From NCBI RefSeq assembly GCF_011045215.1, contig NZ_CP049201.1: a DNA stretch of 64,000 nucleotides. The stretch is one strand, 5' to 3'. The notes beneath the pieces were generated by a model. It saw only the letters and a list, made by a program, of their open reading frames with translations. It was not told the origin of the DNA and did not search any database. The first letter of the stretch is position 1, and each line of letters opens with the position of its first letter. The DNA comes from Escherichia coli (GTDB taxonomy: Bacteria; Pseudomonadota; Gammaproteobacteria; Enterobacterales; Enterobacteriaceae). The position numbers and the translations under genes are program-made. Of the stretch, positions 3,845-40,453 are shown one piece after another.

Positions 3845-4160
3845 CTGTCTTCCTTTTTAACGACGGTGTGAAGCATGACTGCAATTAACATACAGGGAAA
3901 ATATCTGGATTATGTGATCCAGACAGGCAAAAAAATATAGTTAGAATTTATTTGATAATCCGCTCGCTTTTAACCTGGTTTTTAAAACAACCACGCTTAT
4001 TAAAAAATAACACGTAATAGCATGGCGGTTATTTGAATTCTTTTGTTAATAATCCCTGTGTGATATTCATCACCTTATTTACTCGTTGTCATCGATACCG
4101 TAATCGCCACATTAACACTGCTCGTGCAATTGCCATGGGTGCAATTTTTAAGGAGTTGTT

Positions 4161-5828
4161 ATGATCCACGCCTTTATTAAAAAAGGGTGTTTTCAGGATT
4201 CGGTCAGTTTAATGATTATTTCACGAAAACTCAGCGAATCAGAAAATGTTGATGATGTTTCCGTAATGATGGGTACGCCCGCCAATAAAGCGTTATTAGA
4301 TACCACAGGTTTCTGGCATGACGATTTTAATAACGCCACGCCGAACGATATTTGCGTGGCAATTCGTAGCGAAGTGGCGGATGCGGGGATCGCGCAGGCG
4401 ATTATGCAGCAGCTTGAAGAGGCGCTAAAACAACTGGCGCAGGGGTCAGGCAGCAGCCAGGCGTTGACGCAGGTGCGTCGCTGGGACAGTGCCTGTCAGA
4501 AATTACCCGATGCCAATCTGGCGCTGATTTCAGTGGCTGGCGAGTATGCGGCGGAGCTGGCGAATCAGGCGCTGGATCGCAACCTCAACGTGATGATGTT
4601 CTCCGATAACGTCACGCTGGAAGATGAAATCCAACTTAAAACCCGCGCGCGGGAAAAAGGCTTGCTGGTGATGGGGCCGGACTGCGGTACGTCGATGATT
4701 GCCGGCACGCCGCTGGCTTTTGCTAACGTGATGCCGGAAGGCAACATTGGCGTCATTGGCGCTTCCGGTACCGGGATTCAGGAGCTGTGCTCGCAGATTG
4801 CGCTGGCAGGGGAGGGAATTACTCACGCGATTGGCCTTGGCGGCCGCGACCTCAGCCGTGAAGTGGGCGGCATCAGTGCGCTAACAGCGCTGGAAATGCT
4901 CAGTGCAGACGAGAAAAGCGAAGTGCTGGCATTTGTTTCAAAACCACCTGCCGAAGCGGTGCGTCTGAAAATTGTTAATGCCATGAAAGCAACCGGCAAA
5001 CCGACGGTGGTGCTGTTTTTAGGTTATACCCCGGCGGTGGCCCGCGACGAGAATGTCTGGTTTGCCTCCTCGCTGGATGAGGCCGCACGCCTGGCTTGCC
5101 TGCTTTCACGCGTTACGGCGCGACGTAACGCGATAACGCCTGCCAGCAGCGGATTTATTTGCGGTTTGTATACCGGCGGTACGCTGGCTGCCGAAGCGGC
5201 GGGATTACTTGCCGGACACCTTGGCGTGGAAGCCGATGATGCCCATCATCACGGCATGATGCTCGACGCCGATGGTCACCAGATTATTGACCTCGGCGAT
5301 GATTTCTACACAGTCGGGCGTCCCCATCCGATGATCGACCCAACCTTACGCAACCAGTTAATTGCCGATCTCGGCGCTAAACCGCAAGTGCGTGTGCTGC
5401 TGCTTGATGTCGTGATTGGCTTCGGTGCGACCGCCGATCCTGCCGCCTCGCTGGTAAGCGCCTGGCAAAAAGCCTGTGCTGCGCGTTCAGACAATCAACC
5501 ACTGTATGCCATTGCCACGGTGACAGGCACTGAACGTGACCCGCAATGCCGCTCGCAGCAAATCGCCACGCTGGAAGATGCGGGGATTGCGGTCGTGAGT
5601 TCGCTACCGGAAGCCACCTTGCTGGCGGCAGCGTTAATTCATCCGCTCTCGCCTGCCGCACAGCAACACACACCGTCATTACTGGAAAACGTCGCCGTGA
5701 TTAACATCGGATTACGCAGTTTTGCGCTGGAGCTACAAAGCGCCAGCAAACCGGTTGTGCATTACCAATGGTCGCCAGTCGCCGGCGGCAATAAAAAACT
5801 GGCTCGTTTATTAGAACGTTTGCAATAA
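4161..5828 (+). CDS. fdrA: FdrA, acyl-CoA synthetase-like protein
   Basis: 555-aa ORF, recognised translation. Confidence 0.9.
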   Translation: MIHAFIKKGCFQDSVSLMIISRKLSESENVDDVSVMMGTPANKALLDTTGFWHDDFNNATPNDICVAIRSEVADAGIAQAIMQQLEEALKQLAQGSGSSQALTQVRRWDSACQKLPDANLALISVAGEYAAELANQALDRNLNVMMFSDNVTLEDEIQLKTRAREKGLLVMGPDCGTSMIAGTPLAFANVMPEGNIGVIGASGTGIQELCSQIALAGEGITHAIGLGGRDLSREVGGISALTALEMLSADEKSEVLAFVSKPPAEAVRLKIVNAMKATGKPTVVLFLGYTPAVARDENVWFASSLDEAARLACLLSRVTARRNAITPASSGFICGLYTGGTLAAEAAGLLAGHLGVEADDAHHHGMMLDADGHQIIDLGDDFYTVGRPHPMIDPTLRNQLIADLGAKPQVRVLLLDVVIGFGATADPAASLVSAWQKACAARSDNQPLYAIATVTGTERDPQCRSQQIATLEDAGIAVVSSLPEATLLAAALIHPLSPAAQQHTPSLLENVAVINIGLRSFALELQSASKPVVHYQWSPVAGGNKKLARLLERLQ

Positions 5829-22163: not shown

Positions 22164-22240
22164 GCGCCCTTAGCTCAGTTGGATAGAGCAACGACCTTCT
22201 AAGTCGTGGGCCGCAGGTTCGAATCCTGCAGGGCGCGCCA
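22164..22240 (+). tRNA. argU: tRNA-Arg (anticodon UCU)
   Basis: 77-nt cloverleaf GCGCCCTTAGCTCAGTTGGATAGAGCAACGACCTTCTAAGTCGTGGGCCGCAGGTTCGAATCCTGCAGGGCGCGCCA; anticodon loop CCTTCTAAG. Confidence 0.95.
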
Positions 22241-23646: not shown

Positions 23647-26262
<2,616 letters not shown>

Positions 26263-26926: not shown

Positions 26927-27751
26927 TCAGGCGGTGAAAGTACCAATAAAGGTTTCTACTTTGCTGTCTTTGAATTTCTCAACAAGCAGATCACGAAATT
27001 CGTTAGCCATTTCTTCCTGCACCGCTTCCAGCTGAATAATGCGCAGAACCAGTACAGGACGATCGCCAGTGATAATGCTGAGGCGTAATTTAAACGGACG
27101 TTCTTTCAGACCTTCAAACGGAACGCATTTAAATTCAAATGCCACTGGCATAATGTCTTTGGTCTTCGCTTCGACAGACTCCATCAGGGAGCGTTTGCCG
27201 CTGAAGTCATTATCTTCAAAATCAGCGGTCTGGTTTGCTTCAATCGTGATTTTACGGACTGCCGCAGCCGCTTTTGTTGCTTGAATGGCGTCACCATTAG
27301 CATCAAAGCCCACAAGGTAGTCGGCCCAGTCTTCGATCCATTCTGCCAGTGACTTCTGGGAGTTACGCTCGCCGTTAACAGACAACAGAGTAGAGAACGG
27401 TGCTGTCTTTTTCAGTTTGAGAGTGGCAGTGTTATCTGCGTGACCTGGCTCATCAATAGTACCCAGGTTAAGCACACTGACGGCACGCATATTATCGGCA
27501 TCGATAAAGCAGCGGGTGCCTTCATCTGCAAGATCTTTAGAATAACGGGTAAAATCATCGATGCTGGCAGTGGAAAGTGCACCACGGAAACGGAAGCGAT
27601 TTAAATTAAATTTTTCCAGATCATGAATGCGGAAATTCTCAGGCAATGCCACAGCATCGGCACCAATCTTACTGATAATTTCATTAACACCCTGAGCAGA
27701 AATAAGGGCATGGATTTGATTAATTGCGGTTGCGTCTAAGTTCTGAGACAT
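26927..27751 (-). CDS. phage protein of unknown function, YfdQ-like (DUF2303-type)
   Basis: 274-aa ORF; assignment from remembered similarity to CPS-53 yfdQ. Confidence 0.6.
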
Positions 27752-27816
27752 AATAAGTCCTCACTATATAAAGATATTCAGTGATGAGATAAATAATCAG
27801 TTTATTACGAACGATA

Positions 27817-28179
27817 TTAACGACCTGCTGCGCGGAGTTTTCCGTCAGGTTCACCGGCAAGAGTCAGTAATTGTCCCTGGTCTTCCTGCAGAATAGTCAG
27901 GCGACCACCGCGATTGACATACATCGGCGTTTCGGTGGTGTCTTCTTCGGAAATTTTCCCGCGGTTAGTTGGGCGAACATATGAGAGTTTGTGTTTGATT
28001 TTCACACGGTTCTCATCAAACGGTTCGATTTCCAGATTGAGTGAGACCTTCCCTTTGGTTTTCGTGTTCATCACACCGGAAGCGACCTCACTGAGAACTG
28101 CGCCGATTTTGGTTTCAAATACGCCGCCGTCCAGCTCCCCGATAAATGCCTGCACATCAGTACTGCGTTCGCTAGCCAT
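27817..28179 (-). CDS. phage protein of unknown function, YfdP-like (120 aa)
   Basis: start at MASERS... preceded by AGGAG; the longer ORF upstream looks like non-coding extension. Confidence 0.55.
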   Translation of the reverse strand: MASERSTDVQAFIGELDGGVFETKIGAVLSEVASGVMNTKTKGKVSLNLEIEPFDENRVKIKHKLSYVRPTNRGKISEEDTTETPMYVNRGGRLTILQEDQGQLLTLAGEPDGKLRAAGR

Positions 28180-28199
28180 TTTGCTGCTCCTCATCATAT

Positions 28200-28645
28200 C
28201 GACCCTGCAAGGTCGGTTGGTTTCTCCACAAAACAGAGAAGAACACCTGCGGTGGCAGCCGCCCGGATGGATTGGGTTATGAGCCCGTCGTCCGGTGATG
28301 CTCTTCTCTGTTTTGCAAAAAAGGACGGTACCAGCCGGAAGCAAGGGTACAAACTGGTACCGCCAGGACTACACACAGCATAAAGTTGTGGTGCCGGGTG
28401 CCTCCCGGTGCCTGGCGAAGGTTGCACACCAGGCGGGTGGGTATCCACAGAAGGTCGACTGTCAGCCTCAACCTTAACCCGCGTGCGCTGAGCCGCATTC
28501 ACCACAACGCTAAGGATTCTCTCTGGTTGAAAATACTTAGCTGTTATGTGCCTGCTTTTAGCCACATCAGGCGAGGTGGACCTGGTTATTCCCCAACAAC
28601 AAGGATTCGGTTAATCTGGATATCCCCAACAACAATAAGAGTATT
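28200..28645. other. GC-rich structured non-coding block (candidate phage ncRNA or leader); strand unknown
   Basis: nested inverted repeats, e.g. CAAAACAGAGAAGA 28229-28242 / TCTTCTCTGTTTTG 28302-28315, GGTACCAG/CTGGTACC, CGCCAGG/CCTGGCG, AAGGTTG/CAACCTT; direct repeats CCCCAACAACAA at 28591 and 28624; ORFs here are not protein-like. Confidence 0.3.
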
Positions 28646-28649
28646 CAAT

Positions 28650-29165
28650 GTGATCGCTGAATTAACGGCAGCAATGACGGCTATTCGTGAAACAGCCCAG
28701 ATTGCAAAACTAATGAACGAGGCAAAAACTCAAGCTGAAGTAAATGCGGCTATTGGTGAGCTAAACTCAAAGCTTGCGTCTATTCAGCGCGAATGCGTGT
28801 CTCTCGTTGAACTGGTGGGCTCTTATCAAGAAATAAATGCTTCTCTCAAAGCTAAAATTGCAGAATTCGAAAACTTTGAGGCTCAGACGGAAGGCTATAT
28901 CCTTAACCAACTTGAGTCGGGTACTTTTGTATACTCGAAGGAGGTAATCGTGAACGGTGGCAGCATAACCATGCATCTTTGCCCAAAATGTTTTGGACAA
29001 AAGATAGTATCGATACTTCAACCATTCCCGGTTAGCGAAGATGAGCTTTTTCATAAAAGCAGGTGCCTCCACTGTGAAAATAAGTTTCTGATGAATAAAA
29101 ATCCGGATTACGTATCGCCTCCATCCATTGAGGAGTTGTCCAGAAAACTTAACGGCAATCTGTAG
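28650..29165 (+). CDS. orphan coiled-coil / zinc-ribbon protein (about 165-171 aa), function unknown
   Basis: GTG 28650 (AAGAG upstream) or ATG 28674; coiled-coil-like N-terminal half; CPKC...(18)...CLHC motif; own terminator; between early-left operon and cI. Confidence 0.55.
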   Translation: MIAELTAAMTAIRETAQIAKLMNEAKTQAEVNAAIGELNSKLASIQRECVSLVELVGSYQEINASLKAKIAEFENFEAQTEGYILNQLESGTFVYSKEVIVNGGSITMHLCPKCFGQKIVSILQPFPVSEDELFHKSRCLHCENKFLMNKNPDYVSPPSIEELSRKLNGNL

Positions 29166-29204
29166 ATTACTACTGTTGTGGATATCCAGATTGTTAAAGA
29201 GCTA

Positions 29205-29229
29205 AGCGTCCTGTAGGGCGCTTTTTTGT
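29205..29229 (+). terminator. rho-independent terminator of the zinc-ribbon gene
   Basis: hairpin AGCGTCCTGTAGGGCGCT followed by TTTTTTG. Confidence 0.6.
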
Positions 29230-29393
29230 TGCTAACGAATCATCCTGGACTTCATATGCCCCAGGCGGCTACTTCCTGGGCGTCCTGCCTGTTCGTTTTT
29301 GACATTTACTGACTGCTTACGACACATGCACCGTGTTGCAACCAGATTTTGTTGTAATCCTGTAGTTGGTCTGGAACAAAAGATAAAATTAAA

Positions 29394-29430
29394 TTGCGAG
29401 ATATGCAAGTAATGTTTGCGAAATATGCAA
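29394..29430. promoter_or_regulatory. two 15-bp operator-like palindromes (TTGCGAGATATGCAA, TTGCGAAATATGCAA)
   Basis: same TTGCG-N5-GCAA family as sites between cI and cro. Confidence 0.4.
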
Positions 29431-29440
29431 ATTTATAGGT

Positions 29441-29464
29441 AATAAAAAGCCACCTTTCGGTGGC
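29441..29464 (-). terminator. rho-independent terminator downstream of cI
   Basis: hairpin GCCACCGAAAGGTGGC followed by TTTTTATT on the minus strand. Confidence 0.55.
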
Positions 29465-29484
29465 CGATGGATGGGATATTGAGG

Positions 29485-30177
29485 TTAATTATGTCTCTTA
29501 AGGGTTTGCGACTGACTGATTAAGACCTTTCCAAAGACCATGAATCGGTGTTCGTTTTCGCTAGTAATTCCCCATTCACGGTAAATCTGGTTATCAGAAA
29601 TCACCAGCAGTTTGTCAGGAATCATTTGAAGTCTTTTAACGTATATTTTGTCATCAAAACCAAAGACATATATACCATCACCATCAAACTGATTGATGCT
29701 GACATCAACGAAGATGAGATCTCCTGGCTCAATGGTTGGACACATACTGTCCCCACGAACGTTGATAACTTTGATGTGATTGGCTGGTCGTCCGCCGAAC
29801 ATTGATACAGCATTATCAGTTCTGTATTCGATGGCATGAATCACATCAATGACATCACCGCCCTGGATAAGGCCATTTCCCGCACTGGCACTGATATCCA
29901 GCATTTCAATACGGAACACATCCTTCACCTGCGCAACATCCTCATTATTACTGTTTTTATATACAGTATTACTTTTGTGGGCAGAGGTAAAGAGATCAGC
30001 AATATCAACACCTAAGCTCTTGGCAATATTACTCAGTGTTTGTTCGGTAAATTGTTTTTGCTTACCCGTTTCTAAGCGCGAGATGTTCGCCGCATCTACT
30101 CCTATTGCTTCAGCGAGATCGGCGATTTTCATGTTCTTCGCTTGGCGAAGTTGTCTGACTCGGTTTCCTATGTTCAT
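29485..30177 (-). CDS. phage CI-type repressor (XRE HTH plus S24 LexA-like peptidase domain)
   Basis: 230 aa; N-terminal HTH; C-terminal region with GDSM and a conserved Lys typical of S24 autopeptidases; divergent from cro. Confidence 0.8.
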   Translation of the reverse strand: MNIGNRVRQLRQAKNMKIADLAEAIGVDAANISRLETGKQKQFTEQTLSNIAKSLGVDIADLFTSAHKSNTVYKNSNNEDVAQVKDVFRIEMLDISASAGNGLIQGGDVIDVIHAIEYRTDNAVSMFGGRPANHIKVINVRGDSMCPTIEPGDLIFVDVSINQFDGDGIYVFGFDDKIYVKRLQMIPDKLLVISDNQIYREWGITSENEHRFMVFGKVLISQSQTLKRHN

Positions 30178-30197
30178 GCGTTTATTACATTTCTTTA

Positions 30198-30260
30198 TTG
30201 CGTGATAAGCAAATCAACTTGCGCAAAATAATTGCGTGAAATAACATGCATAACGCGCAA
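30198..30260. promoter_or_regulatory. OR-like operator/promoter region between cI and cro
   Basis: TTGCGTGATAAGCAA (30198-30212), TTGCGCAA, and reverse-complement site ATGCATAACGCGCAA (30246-30260) in the 97-bp divergent intergenic region. Confidence 0.5.
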
Positions 30261-30274
30261 TATTTGGAGGGCAT

Positions 30275-30535
30275 ATGCAATCACCATTACGAAATGTGCG
30301 TAAGGCGCATGGTTTCACTTTGCAGCATGTTGCTGCGGGTGTTCAAGTCAATCCAGCGACGTTGAGTCGTATTGAGAGGCTGGAGCAGATTCCATCTATC
30401 GAGCTTGCAGAACGTTTAGCCAATTTTTTTAAGGGTGAAGTCAGCGAAATGCAGATTCTTTATCCGGCACGTTTTCAATCTAGCCAAAACCAGAATGGGT
30501 TTAAACCACAGGAACAGGAGGTGAACCGTGGGTAA
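30275..30535 (+). CDS. Cro-like HTH regulator
   Basis: 86 aa; HTH GFTLQHVAAGVQVNPATLSRIER; divergent from cI. Confidence 0.7.
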   Translation: MQSPLRNVRKAHGFTLQHVAAGVQVNPATLSRIERLEQIPSIELAERLANFFKGEVSEMQILYPARFQSSQNQNGFKPQEQEVNRG

Positions 30536-31079
30536 GCATCACTGGAAAGTAGAAAAACAGCCTGAGTGGTACGTGAAAGCTGTCAGAAAAACTATCGCAG
30601 CGTTGCCGGGGGGGTACGCTGAAGCTGCTGACTGGCTGGATGTAACAGAGAACGCATTATTTAACCGCCTTCGTGCCGATGGCGATCAGATTTTCCCGCT
30701 GGGATGGGCAATGATTTTGCAACGTGCTGGTGGAACTCACTTCATTGCTGACGCTGTGGCGCAGTCTGCAAATGGCGTCTTTGTGTCTCTTCCTGACGTC
30801 GAGGATGTGGACAACGCCGATATTAACCAGCGCCTGCTGGAAGTCATTGAACAGATCGGCAGTTATTCAAAACAGATTCGTTCAGCAATTGAAGACGGTG
30901 TAGTGGAACCGCATGAGAAGACAGCAATTAACGACGAGCTGTACCTCTCAATTTCGAAGCTGCAGGAGCATGCAGCACTGGTCTACAAAATTTTTTGCAT
31001 TTCAGAAAGTAATGACGCCCGCGAGTGTGCAGCTCCGGGCGCCGTGGCGTGTCGTGACTGTGGAGAAACTAACGCATGA
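30528..31079 (+). CDS. phage CII-like regulatory protein (CP76-type)
   Basis: 183 aa; position after cro; family assignment from memory. Confidence 0.45.
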
Positions 31080-36004: not shown

Positions 36005-36585
36005 TGGCATTCAGAATGAGTGAACAACCACGGACCATAAAAATTTATAATCTGCTGGCCGGAACTAATGAATTTATTGGTGAAGGTGACGCATATATTC
36101 CACCTCATACAGGTCTGCCAGCAAACAGTACCGATATTGCACCGCCAGATATTCCGGCAGGCTTCGTGGCTGTTTTCAACAGTGATGAGGCATCGTGGCA
36201 TCTTGTTGAAGACCATCGGGGTAAAACGGTTTATGACGTGGCTTCCGGCGACGCGTTATTTATTTCTGAACTCGGCTTATTACCGGAAAATGTCACCTGG
36301 TTATCCCCGGAAGGGGAGTTTCAGAAGTGGAACGGCACAGCCTGGGTGAAAGATGCAGAAGCAGAAAAACTGTTCCGGATCCGGGAGGCGGAAGAAACAA
36401 AAAACAACCTGATGCAGGTAGCCAGTGAGCATATTGCGCCACTTCAGGATGCTGTAGATCTGGAAATCGCAACGGAGGAAGAAAACTCGTTGCTGGAAGC
36501 CTGGAAGAAGTATCGGGTGTTGCTGAACCGTGTTGATACATCAACTGCACCTGATATTGAGTGGCCTGTAATACCAGAAGTTTAA
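36004..36585 (+). CDS. tail fibre assembly protein (Tfa)
   Basis: 193 aa; stop/start overlap with stf. Confidence 0.75.
36424..36548. repeat. direct repeat copy 1 (3' end of tfa)
   Basis: about 90 percent identical to 40254-40380. Confidence 0.7.
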
Positions 36586-40147: not shown

Positions 40148-40453
40148 ATGCTGCCGCAGCATGGCGATATTGAAATAGCCTGGTATGCTTCAATACAGCA
40201 GGAGCCGAATGGCTGGAAGACCGTCACCACACAGTTCTACATCCAGGAATTCAGTGAGTATATTGCGCCACTGCAGGATGCTGTAGATCTGGAAATCGCA
40301 ACGGAGGAAGAAAGATCGTTGCTGGAGGCATGGAATAAATATCGGGTATTGTTGAATCGTGTTGATACATCAGTAGCTCTGGGTATGAAGCTGTTTGTAA
40401 CTCATGTTACAGTAACAGCCATTACTATCTCGAAGGTGCAAAATGTATATTGA
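40148..40453 (+). pseudogene. tail fibre assembly (tfa) 3' remnant
   Basis: only the C-terminal Tfa segment ([34 protein letters not shown]) is recognisable. Confidence 0.6.
40254..40380. repeat. direct repeat copy 2 (tfa 3' end)
   Basis: pairs with 36424-36548. Confidence 0.7.

Follow-up and report, generated by a model that had tools for sequence, protein, structure and literature searches.

Gene setting and composition of the block

The 64,000-nucleotide (nt) stretch of Escherichia coli contig NZ_CP049201.1 analysed here (the window) contains a lambdoid prophage, integrated beside a tRNA-Arg gene, and within it a block of non-coding sequence (28180-28649) sits between the minus-strand gene yfdP and a plus-strand gene of unknown function, hereafter the orphan gene (Table 1). 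Covariance-model comparison places the block among the STnc100/EcOnc27/PasD prophage RNAs, as a divergent member of this family that is embedded in an operon. Beyond the orphan gene lie a cI-like repressor gene and a cro-like gene, and exact copies of an operator-like 15-bp palindrome (TTGCGnnnnnWGCAA) occur only at three sites, two of them forming OL and one OR. Given the position of the OL pair, the leftward early promoter PL is most likely to be found at ~29390-29430. From PL the path of the left operon runs antisense across the plus-strand gene, through the block and into yfdP, yfdQ and yfdR. An earlier interpretation made from the letters alone (the sequence-only reading) had offered, among other possibilities, a regulatory leader of the early-left operon, and with regard to location this agrees with the arrangement observed: the element lies between OL/PL and yfdP-yfdQ-yfdR, and the same slot is filled in SfV, ST64B, e14 and phiES15.

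The block had further been characterised as GC-rich and heavily self-complementary, and these descriptions are borne out. Its G+C content is 0.555-0.58 over 28100-28600 as against 0.35-0.45 in the flanks, and the arms of a 14-bp inverted repeat at 28229-28242 (CAAAACAGAGAAGA) and 28302-28315 (TCTTCTCTGTTTTG) are fully complementary across a gap of 59 nt, lengthening in a repeat search to 24 nt at 83% (28229-28252/28292-28315; repeat I1). The same search recovered the further, shorter inverted pairs (I6, I3, I7 and I10) and a direct repeat, D5, in which TCCCCAACAACAA occurs twice (28590-28602 and 28623-28635) with a spacing of 33 bp; by our own estimate the chance expectation for such 13-mer pairs in 450 bp is ~0.002. 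Open reading frames (ORFs) overlapping the block also exist, for instance one of 123 aa on the minus strand (28194-28565). Folding of 401 nt gave -171.9 kcal/mol for the minus strand (z = -5.3, with 0/100 shuffles as good) and -155.7 kcal/mol for the plus strand (z = -3.5), so that either strand folds better than expected by chance, the minus strand more markedly. The features and coordinates of the sequence-only reading hence stand, and it is the direction that needs correction: the structured element reads on the minus strand, the conserved unit being the RNA module listed in Table 1.

Table 1. Features of the block and of the surrounding prophage, in window coordinates
Feature	Position	Strand	Remarks
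RNA module	28579-28180	-	~400 nt; inside the phage early-left operon
5' boundary motif CCACCUCGCCUGAUGUGGCUAAAAGCAGGCACAUAAC	28543-28579	-	conserved next to P0; BLAST breakpoint at query 400 = window 28579
Stem P0 (GCUAAGUAUUUUC / GAGAAUCCUUAGC)	28541-28529 with 28521-28509	-	repeat I3; directly adjoins the core
Core	28508-28385	-	124 nt; STnc100 full-model match, RNAalifold, covariation
P1	28508-28500 with 28393-28385	-	closing helix, followed by linker AAU
P2	28496-28481	-	bulged hairpin
P3	28480-28478 with 28437-28435	-	closing pairs
Pseudoknot	28475-28469 with 28424-28418	-	AAGGUUG with CAACCUU
P4	28434-28427 with 28417-28410	-	
P5	28408-28394	-	CCGGG-AGGCA-CCCGG; invariant hairpin CCGGGAGGCACCCGG; directly adjoins the 3' strand of P1
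Tail UUUAUGCUGUGUGUAGUCCU	28384-28365	-	single-stranded; candidate seed or recognition segment
Terminator T1	28364-28317	-	11-bp stem GGCGGUACCAG/CUGGUACCGUC, 19-nt loop, CUUUUUU; repeat I6
Hairpin H2	28315-28229	-	near-perfect; lower stem 19-26 bp; corresponds to the 14-bp repeat (I1)
Remaining yfdP 5' leader	28228-28180	-	GUGGAGA; small hairpin CGACCUUGCAGGGUCG at 28217-28198; Shine-Dalgarno GAGGAG
Inverted pair I6	28326-28334/28354-28362		perfect over 9 nt
Inverted pair I3	28509-28521/28529-28541		
Inverted pair I7	28385-28393/28500-28508		
Two copies of TCCCCAACAACAA	28590-28635	+	33 bp apart; 5' region of the plus-strand moron gene
yfdP	27817-28179	-	ATG at 28179, just after Shine-Dalgarno GAGGAG
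Orphan gene	28650-29165	+	171 aa
Terminator of the orphan gene	29204-29223		
OL operators	29394-29408, 29416-29430		TTGCGnnnnnWGCAA
OR operator	30198-30212		TTGCGnnnnnWGCAA
cI-like repressor gene	29485-30177	-	
cro-like gene	30275-30535		
tRNA-Arg gene	22164-22237		prophage integration beside it
IS21-type insertion	24181-25982		istA (340 aa), istB (260 aa); left prophage arm

STnc100 homology and the covarying fold of the core

A covariance-model scan at the curated Rfam thresholds returned nothing in the block, whereas reporting by E-value recovered STnc100 (RF02076) on the minus strand at 28538-28315. This match is significant and full-length, covering model positions 1-206 of 206 with 40.3 bits (E = 7.2e-7 in a 1.7-kb search and 2.7e-5 over both strands of the entire window with 4227 families). 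Sub-threshold scores were likewise obtained for SfV (39.5), phiES15 (40.6), SJ46 (41.9), ST64B (35.1) and P1 (33.4), with the matching segment lying between cI and yfdP in SfV and ST64B, upstream of kil-gam in phiES15, and upstream of tciA in the ban operon in P1 and SJ46. Known riboswitch and ribozyme classes gave no Rfam match in the block even at E-values up to 10, nor in the whole-window E-value scan. The DicF model (RF00039) was considered and set aside, as it reached 15.7 bits against a threshold of 48 (E = 3.2) and covered the terminator hairpin alone.

The window element and STnc100 have in common the closing helix with GGUGAAU, the bulged P2 hairpin with a U-N-N-G-C loop, P4 and the invariant CACCGGGAGGCACCCGGCACCA. 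Both are prophage-borne in Enterobacterales and possess a 3' intrinsic (Rho-independent) terminator, which in the window is T1 with its U6 run; this aligns with the terminator of the STnc100 model and has its stem formed in the minimum-free-energy fold. The window can also be aligned with 20 canonical cores, the helices being maintained via compensatory changes. It belongs to a sub-branch of 20 loci that differs from canonical STnc100 in the P2 stem, which in the window is GCGGC/GC-CGC instead of CCCCC/GG-GGG (three compensatory swaps), and in the possession of the additional 5' stem P0. The window element is further distinguished by the boundary motif 5' to this stem, by the lack of a promoter of its own, and by its position in the early-left operon upstream of yfdP, STnc100 itself being at the late 'moron' site that follows stx2B or Q (PMC12370729, PMC4104026). 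Moreover, the Rfam consensus structure of STnc100 is without a pseudoknot, whereas a covarying pseudoknot was found in the present analysis.

When a single genome of each species was scanned for the 3' motif ACCGGGARGCACCCGGCACC common to these elements, at least 120 loci were recovered, from Citrobacter, Enterobacter, Klebsiella, Salmonella, Pantoea, Erwinia, Rahnella, Buttiauxella and other genera. Among the matches listed, to which the counts out of 143 and 121 in this section refer, GGTGAA is present 63-108 nt upstream of ACCGGGARGCACCCGGCACC in 126/143, and 121 unique cores display one common architecture. In this architecture P2 is a 5-bp bulged hairpin with the loop U-N-N-G-C, a geometry that fits 114/121 cores despite stems as varied as CCCCC/GG-GGG, GCGGC/GC-CGC, UCUCC/GG-GGA, CCCUC/GA-GGG and CCAGC/GC-UGG. 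P3 is a short closing helix that encloses a variable insert, and P4 is found with 76 distinct 5' strands and a mean stem of 6.98 bp, as against 4.72 bp when the interior is shuffled; a conserved G-U pair in P4 is compatible with the minus strand only. RNAalifold, applied to 22 diverse cores including that of the window, independently recovered P1-P5, with compensatory double changes in 13 of the 26 pairs. In this alignment standard pairing is observed in 95.3% of cells, as against 41-47% after sliding the partners by 1-3 columns, and none of 500 shuffles matched any of the observed pairing measures.

The pseudoknot is formed by 5-10 nt just after P2/P3, which pair with the loop of P4, as in AAGGCUGG with UCAGCCUU in phiES15 and AGACUGACA with UGUCAGUCU in Pantoea. 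At least 5 bp are possible in 101/121 cores, with 71 distinct 5' strands. Across subfamilies, P4 and the pseudoknot are not aligned correctly by plain MAFFT, and this interaction was therefore tested by an alignment-free permutation, in which the complementarity of cognate strands averaged 6.30 nt and that of permuted loops 4.70 (standard deviation 0.11; z ~15). P5 behaves differently from these helices: of 66 unique sequences recovered through an independent 5' anchor in viral contigs, 54 carry it without a mismatch and the rest with 1-3 mismatches and no compensatory change, indicating that it is conserved as a sequence and not merely as a helix. The core is thus a five-helix junction plus a pseudoknot, with strong covariation support. 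The closing helix of 7-9 bp and the cloverleaf-like junction, together with the tRNA arrays to which some relatives are linked, might suggest a likeness to tRNA, but the loop of P5 is not a T-loop and this likeness was not adopted.

The minus-strand STnc100 match and the covariation across many species uphold the proposal of the sequence-only reading that the block could be a structured non-coding RNA, and the homologues do not point to a decayed coding sequence. That the block is nevertheless a decayed or real protein-coding gene, of the type annotated as ymfH upstream of xisE-intE in the e14 element of E. coli K-12, is highly improbable. The 123-aa minus-strand ORF and the 89.5% identity to this annotated K-12 region speak for such a gene, but identical DNA in AMSCJX02 is annotated as a frameshifted pseudogene by PGAP, and 1-nt indels separate e14, SfV and ST64B from the window, their longest ORFs being in different frames; on these grounds the ymfH-type ORF was rejected as a conserved coding sequence. 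Furthermore, ymfH as annotated begins at the GUG contained in the conserved GGUGAAU of helix P1, substitutions track base pairing and not codons, and an intrinsic terminator lies mid-sequence, so that the K-12 ORF reads through it. The e14 ymfH gene (4002-4313 of locus L001) corresponds to ~28191-28502 of the window on the minus strand and overlaps the structured RNA. An over-expression clone of this gene has been reported as a trigger of the RcaT toxin of retron-Sen2 (bioRxiv 10.1101/2020.06.22.160242), and ymfH is placed in the YmfT regulon, co-regulated with xisE and intE (PMC12133099). The over-expression clone necessarily includes most of the structured RNA, and the trigger of retron-Sen2 could be RNA rather than protein. 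Regarding expression of the ST64B or e14 copies, nothing decisive was found in the literature.

Module boundaries, contexts of relatives and the orphan gene

Read by eye, P0 covaries across the subfamily, its strands being GAUAAGAGUU/AACUCUUAUC in ST64B, GAAGCGCAUU/GAAUGCGCUUC in phiES15, GAGAGCAUU/AGUGCUCUC in Pantoea and AAGAGCAUUC/GAAUGCUCUU in phage P1. The boundary motif adjoins P0 in SfV, e14, phiES15 and the Pantoea/Erwinia loci L126, L026 and L090, and could form two interleaved helices (CCAC/GUGG and GCCUG/CAGGC). In other members it is replaced by a terminator-like hairpin and a U-run followed by CACAAC, and one or the other of these arrangements is found upstream of the 20 window-type loci. 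From the tail, UGCUGUGUG(U/A)AGUC is kept in ST64B and phiES15 despite a different terminator downstream, and Pantoea-type members have GUGUGUGGAGUAAUC at the same position. H2 also forms in the minimum-free-energy fold. Compared by eye with its ST64B counterpart, it shows a compensatory change from G-C to A-U at one pair, and several changes on one side only that preserve pairing; in the yfdP leader this hairpin probably serves either for processing, as an RNase III-type site, or for translational control.

Several known signals were considered for these segments. A boxA-like sequence, UGCUCUUU, was seen in members from P1, lambda and Pantoea, but there it belongs to the base-paired 3' strand of P0, and it covaries away from boxA in phiES15 (UGCGCUUC) and the window (AUCCUUAG), whereas the lambda nut site presents a single-stranded boxA (GCUCUUUA-like) beside a boxB hairpin; a nut-type function was accordingly rejected. 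The segment GGCGGTAC of T1 agrees at 7/8 positions with the RfaH ops sequence GGCGGTAG, but the mismatch removes the G required for the ops hairpin and the T1 of ST64B is unrelated, and this candidate was rejected too. A consensus scan found no sigma70-like site on either strand in 27700-30600; the one candidate promoter upstream of P0, CTGATG-16-CATAAC, lacks the -7 T and reads CACAAC in relatives, and was not accepted.

The isolated phage PhiR49_1 has the DNA of the block at 100% identity, and SfIV, SfV and SfII have it at 95-98%; of 5426 complete E. coli genomes, 3007 contain at least part of the element. Breaks in BLAST coverage occur at 28365, 28579 and 28633 of the window, implying that the block consists of separately exchangeable pieces. 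The segment from T1 through H2 to yfdP is shared at 97% with the mEp460, cdtI and Stx2c phages, in which the STnc100-like core is absent; the 214-nt piece 28579-28366 thus behaves as an insertable RNA module placed on a resident terminator. The element may thus be described as an 'RNA moron' that borrows the terminator already in place.

Across the family, a strict scan detected a simple terminator in 39/118 instances and a strong promoter aimed at P1 in 14/118. Some members are stand-alone units with a consensus promoter and terminator, and these proportions indicate that the family does not uniformly consist of stand-alone genes. In the window-type sub-branch the downstream gene is yfdP at six loci, kil in phiES15 and tciA in P1 and SJ46, with a 58-aa phrog_1998 protein encoded downstream at Pantoea/Erwinia loci. 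A 133-nt version of the core is present 90-200 nt upstream of, and on the same strand as, a gene for a 233-aa porin of the OmpL/KdgM family at 10 loci in Enterobacter, Klebsiella, Kosakonia and relatives (L012, L019, L021, L057, L062, L080, L085, L111, L112 and L122). These copies are at a conserved, apparently chromosomal locus with a weak hairpin between core and gene, a layout that looks like that of a 5' untranslated region (UTR). Elsewhere, tandem arrays of two to four cores, ~220-270 bp apart, are situated between a Q-like antiterminator gene and a holin-endolysin cassette, and at other loci the core is followed within 4-10 nt by a tRNA gene (tandem or tRNA-linked: L015, L047 and L052 in Superficieibacter, L038 in Citrobacter braakii, L108/L109, and L179 on a viral contig).

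A partial relative was also observed in phage lambda (NC_001416 43800-45300; L132 ~985-1146), where CACAAC-AGG-(GGTAAGAGCATTG...CAGTGCTCTTTCC)-GTTGTGCTGAAT directly follows the U-run of tR'. This late leader has the same 5' module (CACAAC, P0, the start of P1 and GAAU) as the window-type elements of P1 and Pantoea, in the order CACAAC-AGG-P0-GUUGUGCUGAAU. It differs in having a closing helix of 9 bp, GUUGUGCUG/CAGCACAAC, in place of GUUGUGGUG/CACCACAAC, and in an interior that is without CCGGGAGGCACCCGG and has no Rfam match.

The orphan gene encodes a protein with a predicted coiled-coil in its N-terminal half and a CxxC...CxxC arrangement in its C-terminal part; no Pfam or NCBIfam family was recovered for it, its sole match being phrog_1244 (unknown function). 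With its own terminator, the gene converges on the presumed PL transcript. It is found together with the block in a DLP12-like remnant of AMSCJX02 and also occurs in a Rac-like O157:H7 prophage that lacks the core. The suggestion that the RNA might be a partner of this adjacent protein is not supported: the two are on opposite strands, the RNA is located beside orf33 in SfV, gp36 in SfIV and ymfI in e14, and the gene occurs without the core. Given this failure of co-occurrence, an obligate link between them was rejected.

The block is upstream of the orphan gene in a geometrical sense only. The alternative that it constitutes the promoter/operator and 5' leader of that gene, with the self-complementarity reflecting regulatory repeats at the DNA level, is unlikely. 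The TCCCCAACAACAA repeats do lie 14-60 nt upstream of the GTG start, and ~108 bp (28542-28650) have been carried along with the gene into the Rac-like O157:H7 prophage, but only 28580-28649 is plausible as the upstream region of the gene itself. The other ~400 nt are conserved independently of it, with varied neighbours; the helices covary with G-U pairs suited to the minus strand only, and a promoter-like site is found on neither strand. The CCCCAACAACAA repeats, which the sequence-only reading had grouped with the rest of the block, are outside the RNA unit, upstream of its 5' boundary. The segment 28580-28633 is ~98% shared with SfIV and phage Kati, in which a different plus-strand gene follows it. 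The TCCCCAACAACAA copies contain (AAC)n runs, a form of A-R-N repeat, near the start of the plus-strand gene; they could be direct repeats that bind a protein or A-R-N motifs in an mRNA leader, and the segment bearing them may be a leader or promoter that moves as a unit and serves a 'moron slot' located between cI and the left operon.

Elsewhere in the prophage, the IS21-type insertion is positioned between the tRNA-Arg/integrase end and the yfdR-side genes, and may have disrupted the xis/int region. On the plus strand, the Rfam model IS009 matches 36347-36545 with 227.6 bits, well over its threshold, and 40171-40374 with 111.4 bits against a threshold of 117. The right operons of SfV, ST64B and mEp460 contain adjacent matches to IsrK and C4 antisense RNA above the Rfam thresholds, inside or beside a gene annotated as a transcriptional regulator or antirepressor.

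Possible roles as a terminated small RNA or a leader device

STnc100, also termed EcOnc27 or sRNA103, is a prophage small RNA (sRNA) of Salmonella and enterohaemorrhagic E. coli (EHEC) that is bound by Hfq in EHEC (PMC4104026, PMC12711010). PasD1 and PasD2 of enteropathogenic E. coli are prophage-encoded, Hfq-dependent sRNAs confirmed by Northern blot (PMC8550237), and PasD and STnc100 have been reported to be structural homologues (bioRxiv 10.64898/2026.05.13.724894). The members described in published work bind Hfq and are found as discrete sRNAs of 80-240 nt. The kinship of the window element with PasD runs solely through this reported homology, and PasD has the Q antiterminator gene and lpxR or esterase genes nearby in the late region, in contrast to the early-left position of the window element.

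In light of these precedents the preferred reading, to which a probability of roughly 0.55 may be assigned, is that the element is a leftward-transcribed RNA module of the early-left operon that yields a terminated STnc100-type RNA, possibly acting in trans. Transcripts would enter it from upstream, most likely from PL after induction, and would have two fates at T1, stopping there or reading through. In the former case a stable, folded RNA of ~220-260 nt would be released, carrying a terminator U-tail of the kind that Hfq binds and possibly acting in trans via the conserved single-stranded tail or the invariant loop of P5. Under antitermination, read-through would proceed across H2, as a probable double-strand processing site, into yfdP-yfdQ-yfdR. 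Of this picture, the family homology, strand, fold, terminator, map position and modularity have been demonstrated; where the transcript originates, that Hfq binds it and that it acts in trans are inferred.

A number of observations weigh against this interpretation. The score of the block remains under the STnc100 gathering threshold of 47 bits, a promoter at the base of P1 was found in none of the 20 window-type loci, and elsewhere in the window no site complementary to the tail was found beyond chance expectation. An element dependent on PL would be silent in the lysogen, unlike the published STnc100 and PasD RNAs, and a transcript from PL would need to pass antisense through the orphan gene, and perhaps also through the terminator of that gene. 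Hfq association and expression are on record for the canonical copies alone (PMC4104026, PMC12711010, PMC8550237). A five-helix, pseudoknotted core with a hairpin of invariant sequence is unusual for a simple base-pairing sRNA. Finally, some relatives occur without a terminator directly before a start codon or tRNA gene (tciA in P1, yfdP at L069/L125, L038 and L108), and these copies indicate a cis or structural role.

It is this last aspect that brings in the main alternative, a possible one though distinctly less probable, namely that the element is primarily a cis-acting leader device of antiterminated phage operons and not a trans-acting sRNA. The core could gate or assist read-through of T1, as an attenuator, by sensing a ligand or protein, or by modifying RNA polymerase in the manner of put or EAR; alternatively, it could provide a processing or stability cap for the downstream mRNA after cleavage at P0 or H2. 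Window-type members are promoterless and invariably intra-operonic, preceded by a terminator or hairpin and followed by the next gene. The wider family clusters at places where terminators need to be read through, namely between Q and holin-endolysin (at least 10 loci, with up to 3 tandem copies), in PL operons, in the ban operon of P1 and in tRNA arrays; certain copies adjoin start codons or tRNA genes with no terminator, and the 10 chromosomal copies ahead of the porin gene are UTR-like in placement. To these may be added the riboswitch-like complexity of the core, with its invariant junction and loop nucleotides, and the occurrence of the same 5' module (CACAAC-AGG-P0-GUUGUG...GAAU) right after tR' in lambda. 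Yet related phages retain T1-H2-yfdP without the core, which is therefore not required for T1, and inspection by eye recovered no consistent alternative pairing between core and T1. The published relatives are discrete terminated sRNAs with no obvious suppression of their own terminator (PMC8550237), and none of the known riboswitch or ribozyme models matched.

The logic of this arrangement is reminiscent of other known RNAs. Lambda 6S RNA (PR'-tR') and StxS of the Stx2 phage are terminated leader RNAs of antiterminated operons, and, like the window element, they are short structured RNAs before or around terminators that are overridden by phage antitermination. Their start at PR' and their unrelated sequence set them apart from the window element, which is in the left operon and for which no start site was found. 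HK022 put and Bacillus EAR are also structured RNAs in long operons upstream of terminators, with a resemblance that is one of logic only, as there is no match in sequence or model and the relatives of the window element terminate enough to appear as sRNAs. In HK022-type systems, put sites of two stem-loops in ~70 nt occur once shortly after PL and once shortly after PR, whereas the window element has five helices plus a pseudoknot, is present as one copy in the 64 kb and lies ~850 nt from the OL operators; the single copy also speaks against a cis role of this type. A put-like system was rejected on account of the single copy and the different architecture; the HK022 record itself carries no put annotation. 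The ORF list of this prophage contains no recognisable N gene between PL and the element.

A related and more tentative proposition concerns the core as such, which may be more than a base-pairing sRNA dependent on Hfq. With its five-helix junction, its pseudoknot and its invariant GGGAGG-bearing hairpin, it might be an RNA device that acts on its own transcript or binds a specific partner in the cell, for instance a nuclease, a small ligand, the ribosome or RNA polymerase. Phages would use it wherever terminators are crossed or mRNAs processed, as in PL operons, late leaders that depend on Q (with the relative in lambda among them), tRNA arrays and the ban operon of P1, with some enterobacteria appearing to have co-opted it as the 5' UTR of an OmpL/KdgM-type porin gene. 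The probability of this reading is fairly low.

STnc100 is among the most often annotated 'sRNAs' in bacterial genomes (PMC9029176), and sequence variants of the copy beside stx2 have been linked to clinical outcome (PMC12711010). The sub-branch described here is overlooked by current annotation, being below the Rfam cut-off, embedded in early operons and mislabelled as YmfH or hypothetical proteins, even though over half of the complete E. coli genomes contain it in part or whole. Of interest to specialists may be the pseudoknot and the invariant P5, as well as the contexts within operons and on the chromosome and the relative in lambda. The pseudoknotted fold together with the invariant hairpin suggests a more specific molecular partner than Hfq alone, and should the cis-acting role prove true, the element would represent a new kind of lambdoid leader element, with a relative in lambda itself.

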